From the IMG/VR virus record IMGVR_UViG_2751185968_000010: a DNA stretch of 8,544 nucleotides, one strand, 5' to 3'. This DNA comes from a virus. Lineage: Duplodnaviria; Heunggongvirae; Uroviricota; Caudoviricetes. This document shows, one piece after another, positions 3,803 to 7,529 of this stretch (position 1 is the first letter of the stretch; the number at the start of each line of letters is the position of its first letter). The position numbers and the translations under genes were made by a program. The notes below the pieces were generated by a model, which was given only the letters and a program-made list of their open reading frames with translations, did not search any database and was not told the DNA's origin.

Positions 3803-3958
3803 TTACTCCTCAGGTTCGTAAGCTGTGAAGACAGCGACCTCCGTCTGGCCGGTTCGGATTCGTACCTCGCAGAGGTCTTTCCTCGTTACCAGTGCCGTCA
3901 CTATGACGGTTAAACAGATGACGATCAGGGCGATTAGCATCGCCTTTTGCTGCTTCAT
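3803..3958 (-). CDS. hokD: Hok-family type I toxin (HokD/RelF-like), 51 aa
   Basis: Translation MKQQKAMLIALIVICLTVIVTALVTRKDLCEVRIRTGQTEVAVFTAYEPEE matches my recollection of HokD (RelF) and is close to Gef. SD AAGGAGAAG upstream. Single TM helix followed by the conserved C-terminal domain. Confidence 0.9.
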   Translation of the reverse strand: MKQQKAMLIALIVICLTVIVTALVTRKDLCEVRIRTGQTEVAVFTAYEPEE

Positions 3959-4128
3959 AGCCTGCTTCTCCTTGCCTTTCGGCACGTAAGAGGCTAACCT
4001 ACGTGTGTAGAGCATAGATATGGCCTCAGATTAATGTTAAGCGTCTTGCCGGACGCGTAATGTTAACTGGGGCTTTTCTCTATCTGCCTTTGGTGTTGAT
4101 GCCCGAGGCAGATAGCCTCAAGCACCCG
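3959..4128 (-). promoter_or_regulatory. hok mRNA leader: tac-like 5' element, sok-target region and an in-frame upstream (mok-like) start at 4015-4013
   Basis: Minus-strand leader GGTGCTTGAGGCTATCTGCCTCGGGC... parallels the plasmid R1 hok leader (GGCGCTTGAGGCTTTCTGCCTCATGACG...) as I recall it. The upstream ATG opens a frame continuous with hok (track ORF 3803..4015). Confidence 0.5.
3986..4060 (+). ncRNA. Candidate Sok-like antisense RNA (type I antitoxin); ends approximate
   Basis: Plus strand CTTGCCTTTCGGCACGTAAGAGGCTAACCT... is positionally and sequence-wise analogous to the R1 sok promoter/5' region (..CTTGCGCAAAGCGCGGTAAGAGGCTATCCT..). Antisense to the mok-like start. Confidence 0.35.
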
Positions 4129-4162: not shown

Positions 4163-4537
4163 TATGAAATCAATCAGAAAGGTGATCCATAAGAACAACA
4201 GCAAGACAATAAATTGCCATTACAGCAGCAATAGCCAGCGCACATTTGAGAACCAGCACCACAACCTCCTGTATTGGACGTACACCAGTCCTGATAAATA
4301 TGAGGCTGTCTCGTCAGTGATTCAATACAACTACTGGGTATAGTTTCTATGATTTTGTTCTGTGGAAATGGAAAACAGCAACCAGTCACCACCAGCACTT
4401 CTTTAAACATGCCAAGTCACACGCAAGCCAACATTATAGTTCCCTTTGAGCGAGCAGATGAAGCTAGCAAAAATATTGATCACTTAGGATGCATTACTAA
4501 CGTTGCTATGTGTTAACGAACAGGGAGTGGGTCATCA

Positions 4538-4553
4538 GCATAAATATTTATGC
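4538..4553. repeat. Perfect 16-bp palindrome GCATAAATATTTATGC about 150 bp upstream of the membrane-protein gene
   Basis: Read directly; the reverse complement is identical. Confidence 0.6.
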
Positions 4554-4700
4554 AGTAGGTTTCTTTTAGGACTAGATTAATCAAAAACATTTAGATAAAA
4601 TTATAAAATCAAGAAATTGGTGGCAATTAATCTTTAATTGTGCCAGCTGAATTTCGTTATTATAGAAGATTAGCTTTTTTTTGAATGTTTGGAGAGTAAA

Positions 4701-5480
4701 ATGTTAGAACCACCAAAGAGTTATAATGAAATGTTGCCTATGCTCCATAAGGCGACTTTTATTACTACATTTATATTTTACCTATCATTAGTCATTTATG
4801 GCTACATGCCATTGGTTGGCATTAATGCCAAGTATATCCCCCCCGTTAAAGACTACGAGGAATTTATTAAATGGATATTAACCTTTGGCATATTACCAAT
4901 TGCATCTTCAGTTTTTTGGTCAGTAATTAGTGGAGCTTTAGATCTACATAATAATGTAGCAAAAATTATTGGAATAAGGAAGATGTGGGATAGTCATTTA
5001 ATTATTAAACCATTAGCAAAAATTGCAGGCGTTACGAGAAAATTAACTACTGATGAATCTCACAAGGTAATGAGTAAACTGTATTACCCAGAAGTTAAAG
5101 AGTTAAAAGACAAACATTACGTTGAACTTTTCTGGAACAAAGTTTATTACTTTTGGGTTTTCTTTGAACATACAGTAATCGCATTTGTTACTATTTTAAT
5201 AATAAGTATCGCCAAATTAACAAATATATTCTCTGTTACTGGCTCTTTAATTAATCTTTGGTTGTGGATTATTTCTCTTGTCGCATTTGACTTCCTTATT
5301 TTCATAGCATCAGTTAAACCAAGAACAGAAAGCCAAGTAAGACAAATACCTGATAGCAAAATAAAAGAATTCTTTAACAATAACAATATTTTTTTAAACG
5401 AGGTTGATTTTGAATTACAAAATAAATGGAATAAACATACGTTCAGAAAATGCAGCGAAACCGCACACTATGCCATCTAA
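4701..5480 (+). CDS. Hypothetical integral membrane protein, 259 aa, four predicted TM helices
   Basis: ATG at 4701 with SD GGAGAG 4 nt upstream (track ORF starts at an upstream TTG). Hydrophobic segments ATFITTFIFYLSLVIYGYMPLVGI, WILTFGILPIASSVFWSVISGAL, VYYFWVFFEHTVIAFVTILIISIA, LINLWLWIISLVAFDFLIFIASV. A 780-nt open frame in 30% GC DNA is unlikely by chance. Confidence 0.7.
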   Translation: MLEPPKSYNEMLPMLHKATFITTFIFYLSLVIYGYMPLVGINAKYIPPVKDYEEFIKWILTFGILPIASSVFWSVISGALDLHNNVAKIIGIRKMWDSHLIIKPLAKIAGVTRKLTTDESHKVMSKLYYPEVKELKDKHYVELFWNKVYYFWVFFEHTVIAFVTILIISIAKLTNIFSVTGSLINLWLWIISLVAFDFLIFIASVKPRTESQVRQIPDSKIKEFFNNNNIFLNEVDFELQNKWNKHTFRKCSETAHYAI

Positions 5481-6063
5481 CTATCTCTGTAAACAGATTG
5501 AAAGCACTAATAAAAATGGCAATGCCCTTGATTTTGGATGTGGAAAACTTAGATATTCAGAACAATTAGTAAATAAATTTGAAACTGTGACATTTTTAGA
5601 TTCCAGAAGACAACTAGAAAGAGTGCAAATTATCAGAGGTGTACAAACCACGATTCCAGATTACGTGATAAATAACTATAAGAATGCTAATATTGTTTCT
5701 TATGAAAATATAGATAAAATAACAAATCATTATGATTTCATACTTTGCGCAAACGTGCTTTCCGCAATTCCATGTGAATCCACAATTCACAAAGTCCTCA
5801 GTGCGATTAGAGAATTATTAAAGAGTGATGGTGAAGCACTGATTGTCAATCAATACAAAAGTTCTTATTTCAAGAGGTACGAGAGCGGTATTAAACATTT
5901 GCATGGGTATATATACCAAAACTCTCGTAATGCTTTCTACTATGGTTTATTAGATGTGGATACTGTAAGTAAAATATGCTCAGATAATAATTTAGAAATA
6001 ATAAAATCATGGAGCAAAGCAGGTAGTTCATATGTGGTTGTTGGTAAACATATACATATTTAG
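5470..6063 (+). CDS. Small class-I SAM-dependent methyltransferase (197 aa from ATG 5470; alternative TTG starts at 5404/5410)
   Basis: Rossmann MTase motifs in order: motif I ALDFGCGKL, acidic post-I VTFLD, motif II DFILCANVL, motif III LLKSDGEALIV. No (D/N/S)PP(Y/F) motif, so probably not a DNA amino-MTase. ATG 5470 overlaps the upstream stop (ATGCCATCTAA). Confidence 0.65.
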   Translation: MPSNYLCKQIESTNKNGNALDFGCGKLRYSEQLVNKFETVTFLDSRRQLERVQIIRGVQTTIPDYVINNYKNANIVSYENIDKITNHYDFILCANVLSAIPCESTIHKVLSAIRELLKSDGEALIVNQYKSSYFKRYESGIKHLHGYIYQNSRNAFYYGLLDVDTVSKICSDNNLEIIKSWSKAGSSYVVVGKHIHI

Positions 6064-6377
6064 TTTATTTCAACAAATTATTAGAAAGAGTGATTTGCTT
6101 GTTAATTATTAGCTCGGCAGTGCCGGATCAACATGACCCTGCCACTTAGGCCATTGCCGGTTTATCTACTTTTGTAAGGTTCAGCATGAAGTTTTTATAT
6201 ACTCTTCCTAATATCAATAGTGATGCTCGCTTATGTTAGCTGCTTCTTGTACATAGTAGCCTTCTCCGACAGTACTGCAATGAGCGGAGAGTAAAAGTCG
6301 ATAAACAATAAGGAGGTTCACAATAAATATTTCTCGGTGAAACTTTCAAAGCATTCTCTGTTTTGCTAAATCGACAA

Positions 6378-7277
6378 TTATAAATCAACAACATTTAGTG
6401 TTATATCAATATTATTTAGCCTTGCAATCTCTGATGAATCACTTGCTATTTTAGCTTTTAATTTATCAATATTAATCATATCTTCATGGCTTATATAAAC
6501 CATATCACCTTGGTTAACTTTAGATTTGTTCACTATGGCTTGAATAACAGACAAATCATCCATTACACCTCTCATAAATTTCACCATGCTTTGATCTTTG
6601 AAGTCAGATATCGATTTTGAACGTTGCTTACGTTGAATTGTTCCTTTTGTAATTACTTCATTAATTTCTTTTAAACCAGTGAGCATATCAGACAGACTGC
6701 CTTCGCAACTCATCCGATGTTTTATTGCATTGCGATTAATAATATTGAGTATAATTTCGAGTGAATCTTTATCACTCCATGGATGTAATGATGTATAATC
6801 ATGATGGCGTCGAATGGCGTCAATCATATCCTGGACCATATCTTCATCTGCTTTATCGCAAAGTTCATTCACGAAATAGCTGGGGTCGATTATTTTACAA
6901 TAACTTGGAGTTAGGTATCTTGAGGCTTTACAAAAACCAAAAATATATAAAGTAGAGTATTTATCTTTCAGACTCTCTCCTATTTCATTTGTTTCCTCAA
7001 AAGATTCGATAGTTTTTTTAATTTTTGCTGGACTTGCATTCGTAGTAACTTGAACTGCTATCATGTTTTTATTATCAGCTAAATCAATGGCGGGAAAATT
7101 AACTTTAATCTGATTCATGTTTACCAGTTCACCCATTTTCAGCGCGCGAAACATAAAGATGGTCAATGACTCAATTATTCTTTCCATGTCATGAAAGCCT
7201 GCCTGTTTGCGTTGCGCGATATAAAGCTGGAGTAGTGCAATATCACTCTGTAAGTTTCTAATAAGTGGATCAATCAT
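6378..7277 (-). CDS. Hypothetical 299-aa protein with a candidate HEPN-type R-N-x-x-x-H motif (putative RNase/abortive-infection-like)
   Basis: ATG start with SD AAGGA 9 nt upstream. Residues 182-187 RNAIKH (nt 6734-6717), in a predicted helical context LEIILNIINRNAIKHRMS, fit the HEPN Rx4-6H signature. N-terminal region has a strand-like AIDLADNKNMIAVQVTT segment. No family assignment is possible without a search. Confidence 0.65.
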   Translation of the reverse strand: MIDPLIRNLQSDIALLQLYIAQRKQAGFHDMERIIESLTIFMFRALKMGELVNMNQIKVNFPAIDLADNKNMIAVQVTTNASPAKIKKTIESFEETNEIGESLKDKYSTLYIFGFCKASRYLTPSYCKIIDPSYFVNELCDKADEDMVQDMIDAIRRHHDYTSLHPWSDKDSLEIILNIINRNAIKHRMSCEGSLSDMLTGLKEINEVITKGTIQRKQRSKSISDFKDQSMVKFMRGVMDDLSVIQAIVNKSKVNQGDMVYISHEDMINIDKLKAKIASDSSEIARLNNIDITLNVVDL

Positions 7278-7313
7278 AGCTAATAATCCTTTTCAATGAA
7301 GCTGGAGGTGTGT

Positions 7314-7346
7314 TTAACTATTAGTTAAATTTCTATTTTTATAGAA
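7314..7346. repeat. Two adjacent palindromes in the promoter region of the 299-aa gene (TTAACTA-T-TAGTTAA and TTCTAT-TTTT-ATAGAA)
   Basis: Read directly: 7314-7328 and 7331-7346, 37-70 bp upstream of the start codon at 7277. Confidence 0.5.
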
Positions 7347-7529
7347 ACAAGCTTTACAACTTCATCAAAGTTTCTCAAATCCTAATCCACTTTGCAAATC
7401 CACTAACCATGCTGAATGCTTTCTGTTGTTAAACATATCCGCTGCTGGCACCAAGCAGACAAACACACTAACTCTACCCTACTCCACAAAAGAGCCAATC
7501 AATATCTGAACTAATAAACTTTAATCTCA

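Follow-up and report, generated by a model that had tools for sequence, protein, structure and literature searches.

What does the 299-aa protein encoded in a prophage-derived stretch of DNA do, and does the short motif RNAIKH that it contains mark it as a HEPN RNase? The stretch, an 8,544-nt sequence from a tailed virus (IMG/VR record IMGVR_UViG_2751185968_000010), is referred to throughout, at its full length, as the window. A preliminary description made from the letters alone had proposed a nuclease-type effector of defence or toxicity. That proposal gains support from an N-terminal SMEK/Mrr-like domain that had been missed, and from the defence-island contexts of related genes, but not from the HEPN motif on which it had been built. 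We propose, with moderate confidence, that the protein is a stand-alone, mobile two-domain nuclease and a candidate single-gene system of defence against phages or other mobile elements. The gene and its N-terminal features are as follows.

6378..7277, minus strand: coding sequence of the 299-aa SMEK-domain protein (from the list of open reading frames; 100% DNA match to an annotated gene; 108 homologues, mostly full length).
6813..7277, minus strand: SMEK/Mrr-like PD-(D/E)xK nuclease domain, aa 1-155 (probable catalytic effector).
7023..7172, minus strand: invariant putative active-site stretch (E36, 7170-7172; D65, 7083-7085; Q76, 7050-7052; T78, 7044-7046; K85, 7023-7025).

The open reading frame (ORF) runs from an ATG start on the minus strand at 6378-7277, as had been described, and its product is identical to RefSeq WP_000566847.1, labelled 'SMEK domain-containing protein' in E. 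coli YJ4. Residues 10-120 match the Pfam family SMEK_N (PF21941; E=1.6e-22, 80.3 bits with a cut-off of 27), residues 5-97 match its NCBIfam namesake (NF033859; E=4.9e-31, 106.4 bits with a cut-off of 30), and residues 8-146 match the PADLOC Argonaute-associated (Aga) model (E=1e-20) over only its restriction endonuclease (REase) part, positions 9-143 of 463. A profile of the N-terminal domain, built from 21 relatives, had one match among solved structures, to the Mrr domain of the Kordia jejudonensis Mrr-APAZ prokaryotic Argonaute (pAgo), with E=3.3e-31 across positions 3-148. In the AlphaFold model (predicted local distance difference test, pLDDT, 85), residues 1-155 appear as helices alternating with strands, which on our reading of the model would form an alpha-beta-beta-beta-alpha-beta core.

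Conservation in this domain is concentrated on residues that we take as a candidate active site. Across 52 relatives, with identities down to 17%, E36, D65, Q76 and K85 are identical in 52/52 and T78 in 49/52, and these positions align with the same residues in the solved KjAgo Mrr domain. E36, D65, Q76 and K85 are thus putative catalytic residues, and the protein is, judged by its sequence, a member of a nuclease family of the PD-(D/E)xK type.

SMEK has been described as an Mrr-like nuclease effector domain fused to APAZ in short pAgo systems (PMC10810196; bioRxiv 10.1101/2023.06.08.544223), and weak collateral DNase activity has been reported for KjAgo/SMEK-APAZ (PMC12205087). The SMEK/Mrr-APAZ effector that partners KjAgo (S2B clade, SPARDA-type) is homologous to our N-terminal domain along the full length of the nuclease domain, and the signature NFPAIDLxD...AxQ[VI]T...K is common to both. 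The two differ in what follows: the Argonaute-linked effector has APAZ and a pAgo, while the window protein has instead a 144-aa four-helix bundle and apparently acts alone. When the N-terminal profile was searched for other SMEK architectures, the matches were mostly fragments and were uninformative. One further case was met by chance on plasmid pHAU01 of Herpetosiphon aurantiacus, where a gene of ~1,105 codons (L039, 3920-7237), labelled a TPR-repeat protein and adjoining a reverse transcriptase gene, has a SMEK_N-like domain at its start (31% identity over aa 27-125). It is another architecture, with SMEK_N as the N-terminal module of a larger, probably sensing, protein.

The rest of the protein, in which RNAIKH lies, contains two further features.

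6381..6812, minus strand: family-specific up-down four-helix bundle, aa 156-299 (helices at ~169-182, 195-210, 229-251 and 264-287).
6699..6737, minus strand: corner motif [D/N]-R-x-A-[ILV]-x-[H/D]-x4-E-G, aa 181-193 (from column counts in 52 sequences and the model).

Modelled alone (pLDDT 84; predicted template modelling score, pTM, 0.79), the C-terminal domain consists of four helices with a beta-hairpin inserted between helices 2 and 3. Residues 156-299 match no family in Pfam, NCBIfam or PADLOC, and PHROGs gave merely a weak match to one family of unknown function. An exhaustive hidden Markov model (HMM) search of 1.84 billion representatives with this domain returned 89 clusters; besides fragments, nearly all were proteins of ~290-320 aa that carry the domain at ~150-300. 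Because the search gave this same architecture plus fragments, the domain is known only behind SMEK_N, and other architectures for it were rejected.

RNAIKH is found at aa 182-187 (nt 6717-6734), where it had been placed, and is the sole Rx4H in the protein. The helical context claimed for it agrees with the model, in which the domain is all-alpha, bundle helix 1 terminates with R182, and helix 2 starts after E192-G193-[S/N/D]. Some Rx4H occurred in 23% of composition-preserving shuffles of the protein, and R[NDHQS]xxxH in 7%, so that an Rx4H in a single sequence is insignificant by itself. Within the SMEK-plus-bundle family the motif is nevertheless non-random, since it is conserved across the 52 relatives: R182 in 50/52, A184 in 52/52, E192 in 51/52 and G193 in 47/52. 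Position 187 behaves differently, with His in 34, Asp in 15 (29%) and other residues in 3, and the Asp187 group has no alternative conserved His.

The switch between His and Asp at 187 (nt 6717-6719) covaries with two positions of helix 3, namely 243 (S/G to R; nt 6549-6551) and 247 (A to Q/N/R; nt 6537-6539). This suggests that side chain 187 may pack against helix 3 or form a salt bridge to it; the switch also divides the domain into two sub-families, of which the Asp sub-family matches Pfam SMEK_N better (E ~1e-38), and the covariation could come instead from the phylogeny of two clades. Other conserved polar positions of the domain are D169, K221, D271, K/R274 and N282. The best explanation of the RNAIKH stretch is that it is the corner at which bundle helices 1 and 2 meet, within a conserved polar patch that includes D271 and K/R274.

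The genomic contexts of the gene point to a protein that functions without a fixed partner. When neighbour ORFs from 37 loci were clustered all against all, no family was shared beyond near-identical loci, and the operon of ymfE- and ymfD-like genes that adjoins the gene in the window (see below) is lacking beside its homologues in the other genera examined; on these grounds the protein appears to work alone. A type II toxin-antitoxin module was rejected, as no antitoxin gene is conserved next to the gene across the 37 loci. A short pAgo (SPARDA-type) system was likewise rejected, with both an APAZ match and a shared neighbour absent, and no PIWI or pAgo family occurs among the Pfam-annotated neighbours of SMEK homologues. 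Genes of defence systems are frequent beside these homologues, including CBASS, IetS, AriA/PtuA/GajA-like ATPases (PARIS/Gabija-like), LmuB-like ATPases and reverse transcriptase. At a Pectobacterium brasiliense locus (L018, 6001-8978), a homologue with 83% identity has, on its own strand and ~150 nt downstream of it, a complete CBASS pair (cyclase, E=6e-147; 4TM effector, E=4e-164), and a Citrobacter locus has Lamassu and AAA_15/21 genes as neighbours. SduA_C, AbiGi and, on an IncHI2A plasmid, DUF4145 were also found next to homologues, as were SLATT_5, SymE, TacAT, integrases, resolvases and, near one locus (L016), an Mrr_cat gene.

The gene is carried by elements of several kinds. The window is 100% identical to a lambdoid prophage that is integrated beside ompW in YJ4 and other E. 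coli strains, in which the SMEK gene lies between hokD and a DUF977 gene and is convergent with genes annotated in YJ4 as 'hypothetical protein' and 'class I SAM-dependent methyltransferase' (SAM, S-adenosylmethionine). It is present in 151/5426 complete E. coli genomes (~3%). Sequenced phages are nearly devoid of it, with 2 partial matches in 50,697 records; its carriers are prophages, chromosomal islands, an integron array and a plasmid. The array is in Vibrio parahaemolyticus, where the gene lies among short same-strand genes in what looks like an integron cassette array. In the window, GC content falls to 30-36% across positions 4500-7500, compared with 47-56% in the flanks, consistent with an acquired moron cassette. 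A type I toxin gene of the hokD type is located just upstream of the AT-rich cassette, at 3803-3958 (minus), inside a 70-aa ORF at 3803-4015. An 87%-identical copy of the enterobacterial-type gene was also seen in a 3,048-nt contig labelled Streptomyces sp. NPDC088196 (L017), which is more likely assembly contamination than a genuine transfer.

In the mechanism that we propose, the N-terminal SMEK domain would serve as the effector that cuts DNA, like its counterpart in SMEK/Mrr-APAZ short-Argonaute systems, and the C-terminal bundle would replace APAZ and pAgo as a sensor, regulator or oligomerisation module. The bundle would keep the presumed DNase off until a trigger appears; an infection cue would then activate the nuclease and lead to restriction or abortive infection, giving the predicted defence phenotype. 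Several points weigh against this proposal. The position of the canonical third-strand lysine of (D/E)xK is occupied by Thr78, for which the invariant K85 in the following helix would have to substitute, and the inter-domain geometry is uncertain in the full-length model (pTM 0.60). The invariant polar residues of the bundle (D169, R182, E192, K221, D271, K/R274 and N282) exceed what a passive scaffold needs, so that the C-terminal domain may be catalytic or bind a ligand. No defence phenotype has been reported in the literature for the SMEK-plus-bundle family, PADLOC 2.0 holds no model for this combination as a system, and the proposal does not explain how an unpartnered nuclease would spare the host genome. 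The N-domain family is already known, and annotation names the gene after this domain. Neither the two-domain architecture nor the C-terminal domain nor the autonomous lifestyle has been described, and we found no paper on the protein or on stand-alone SMEK proteins.

The alternative from which the question started is that the bundle is a HEPN RNase. HEPN is defined as a four-helix up-down bundle in which Rx4-6H stands at the end of helix 3, leading into the loop to helix 4, with an acidic residue in helix 2 and frequent inserts between helices 2 and 3; permutation is known once, in the KEN domain (PMC3710099). Structure prediction, which had been suggested as a check for a four-helix core, did return an all-alpha up-down bundle. 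The motif of the SMEK protein ends bundle helix 1 (aa 169-182), unlike the HEPN motif, which ends helix 3. The two short helices before the motif (aa 131-155) are part of SMEK_N: in members of the Asp187 group the profile match extends to position 139/140, and these helices are also covered in the solved KjAgo Mrr domain. The HEPN helix order would be rescued only by an undescribed two-helix permutation. Sequence comparisons were negative throughout. With hmmscan, 23 C-domain sequences and 2 hmmemit consensus sequences had no match to a HEPN-clan Pfam family at E<=10, and hmmsearch of PDB sequences with the C-domain profile gave no match. Alignment of the domain by hhalign with the DUF4145 protein encoded nearby on plasmid pK820-1, a genuine HEPN with the motif RNKASH near its C-terminus, gave 0.07% probability. 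Foldseek returned nothing below E=0.09, and the structural neighbours were not HEPN. We therefore rejected HEPN membership by sequence on the basis of the Pfam scans, the PDB profile search and the hhalign comparison. The HEPN call for RNAIKH fails because profile searches find no HEPN fold, an outcome that the preliminary description had itself counted against it; the motif also ends a different helix, and His187 is often Asp.

HEPN families are notoriously divergent, and the idea survives in another form because the Arg is nearly invariant and lies where a helix of a four-helix bundle ends. The bundle would then be a highly divergent, circularly permuted HEPN RNase with helix order H3-H4-H1-H2, in which R182 and H187 form the catalytic pair and D271 is the helix-2 acid, making the protein a dual REase-HEPN nuclease. 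Usually D/N stands before R182 and a polar residue after it, His187 is kept in 65% of relatives, and the conserved acidic D271 lies near the start of bundle helix 4; the position of the motif, at a helix end running into the next loop of an up-down bundle, is the local HEPN geometry (PMC3710099, section 7). Known HEPN RNases (DUF4145, HepT/DUF86, RnlA and Abi2) share with the window family an all-alpha up-down bundle, a helix-end Arg followed five residues on by His in most members, and contexts of defence or mobile elements. KEN-domain permutation, D-for-H variants and REase-HEPN fusions all have precedent, and SMEK genes sit in defence islands. But no HEPN profile or fold was matched, the motif comes after bundle helix 1 and not after helix 3, 15/52 relatives have Asp in place of the His with no compensating His, and A184 and E192-G193 of the window family fall outside the HEPN signature. 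We consider a permuted HEPN unlikely. A broader version gets somewhat less credence from us and is best called doubtful: SMEK-plus-bundle would be an uncatalogued single-polypeptide defence system whose tail is either a permuted HEPN-like RNase, giving a DNase/RNase dual effector, or a new type of phage sensor that turns on a pAgo-type effector nuclease with no Argonaute involved. If the protein were a Type IV-like modification-dependent restriction endonuclease, its bundle would recognise modified or foreign DNA and its Mrr-like domain would cleave it; no methyltransferase or antitoxin partner would then be needed. The nuclease fold and sequence family are Mrr-like, the gene stands alone with no conserved partner, and its neighbourhoods contain restriction and defence genes such as the Mrr_cat gene mentioned above. 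AspBHI, a modification-dependent enzyme, was named the closest nuclease homologue of SMEK in the SPARDA preprint (bioRxiv 10.1101/2023.06.08.544223). Known readers of modified bases (SRA, winged helix, YTH or similar) were not detected, however, and the bundle matches no DNA-binding family; to our knowledge, a plain four-helix bundle is no known reader of DNA modification. Mrr-family, Type IV and Type ISP nucleases (E. coli Mrr, AspBHI, the N-terminal nuclease of LlaBIII, AF1548) also differ from the window protein, which has Thr for the strand Lys, no recognisable DNA-reader, helicase or methyltransferase domain, and an N-terminal nuclease with a small helical tail. Modification-dependent restriction is in our view quite unlikely. 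A role outside defence, as a housekeeping nuclease or regulator of prophages or mobile elements or as an inactive nuclease-fold binding protein, could be argued from older records that label some homologues 'regulator', from the Thr that replaces the canonical (D/E)xK Lys and from a literature that holds no reported defence phenotype. We regard it as highly improbable, as the gene occupies moron, cassette or island positions rather than a fixed phage module, is nearly absent from sequenced phages and occurs on chromosomal islands, in an integron array and on a plasmid, and the strict invariance of E36, D65, Q76 and K85 favours catalysis.

The two genes convergent with the SMEK gene, whose orientation had been described correctly as facing an operon for a membrane protein and a methyltransferase, are as follows.

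4701-5480 in the window, 4701-5396 in reference genomes, plus strand: ymfE-like membrane protein.
About 5404/5470-6063, plus strand: ymfD-like class I SAM methyltransferase.

The operon (4701..6063, plus) is 68.8% identical at the nucleotide level to ymfE-ymfD of the K-12 e14 prophage (L040), where that pair adjoins the phage-exclusion gene lit; the methyltransferase is a YmfD homologue of the class I, TehB-like SAM type. The ymfED-type pair thus adjoins a different candidate exclusion gene in the window and in e14. With Lit of e14, the SMEK protein has in common an AT-rich moron position of its gene in a lambdoid prophage, next to an operon of the ymfE/ymfD type. Lit, a protease, is unrelated to it in sequence or fold, and the SMEK gene is convergent with its ymfED pair, whereas the arrangement in e14 is divergent. 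A run of 7 T at window positions 5389-5395 is 6 in E. coli YJ4 and ECO21, and among the full-length matches listed 15/15 are 1 nt shorter than the window. With the additional T the ymfE-like gene loses its TAA stop, and the ORF therefore extends to 5480, overlapping the start of the methyltransferase gene; the difference is either a true frameshift allele or an error in sequencing the homopolymer.

In E. coli the SMEK gene is always accompanied by the ymfED-like operon, and the triad is held in three backbones: the window prophage, a second, unrelated prophage (in ECO21, with 84%, 81% and 83% aa identity for the three proteins) and the conjugative IncHI2A plasmid pK820-1 of Citrobacter koseri. 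The triads (window, 4701-7277; L014, 4312-6900; L038, 5001-7589) have diverged in parallel, with 81-90% aa identity. They are co-inherited within Enterobacteriaceae, and could be a compact mobile cassette or reflect a lineage-specific functional coupling. The membrane protein and methyltransferase were rejected as obligate partners: 283 E. coli genomes have the pair but lack the SMEK gene, and no ymfED-like neighbour was found beside SMEK homologues from any other genus examined. A restriction-modification pairing of the nuclease with this methyltransferase is likewise unsupported, as the methyltransferase gene is absent from all non-enterobacterial loci and occurs without the SMEK gene. No paper on the function of ymfD or ymfE was found in the literature.

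Upstream of the SMEK gene, the preliminary description had listed a ribosome-binding site, two palindromes and a direct repeat, all of which are present.

7287..7291, minus strand: Shine-Dalgarno sequence AAGGA, 9 nt before the ATG.

All three orthologous cassettes share the same 24 nt before the ATG, Shine-Dalgarno sequence included. The palindromes (7313-7329 and 7330-7347) and the direct repeat (AATCCACT at 7384-7391 and 7397-7404) show no conservation in the two closest orthologous cassettes (window compared with the upstream regions of L014 and L038). The perfect palindrome TTTAACTA-T-TAGTTAAA (7313-7329) coincides with a 14-nt gap of the window relative to both sister cassettes, and is therefore lineage-specific and no conserved operator. 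The upstream spacer yielded no sigma-70-like site. Regulated expression, which had been suggested from the repeats, is thus weakly supported because the palindromes and direct repeat are unconserved and no such site was found; the upstream palindromes were rejected as operators.

As an example of how far a conserved Rx4H can be trusted, this family is instructive: conservation and fold class were those of a HEPN RNase, and topology, profile and conservation of the His were not. In their known role, SMEK/Mrr domains are effectors turned on by short Argonautes via the adaptor APAZ. Here such a domain comes with a helical domain of its own and travels solo, with CBASS, Lamassu, Ietat and PARIS/Gabija-like genes as neighbours. 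If the protein does protect against phages, it would add a compact (0.9 kb) single-gene system to those known, and would show that the effector module of pAgo systems has been reused with other sensors.
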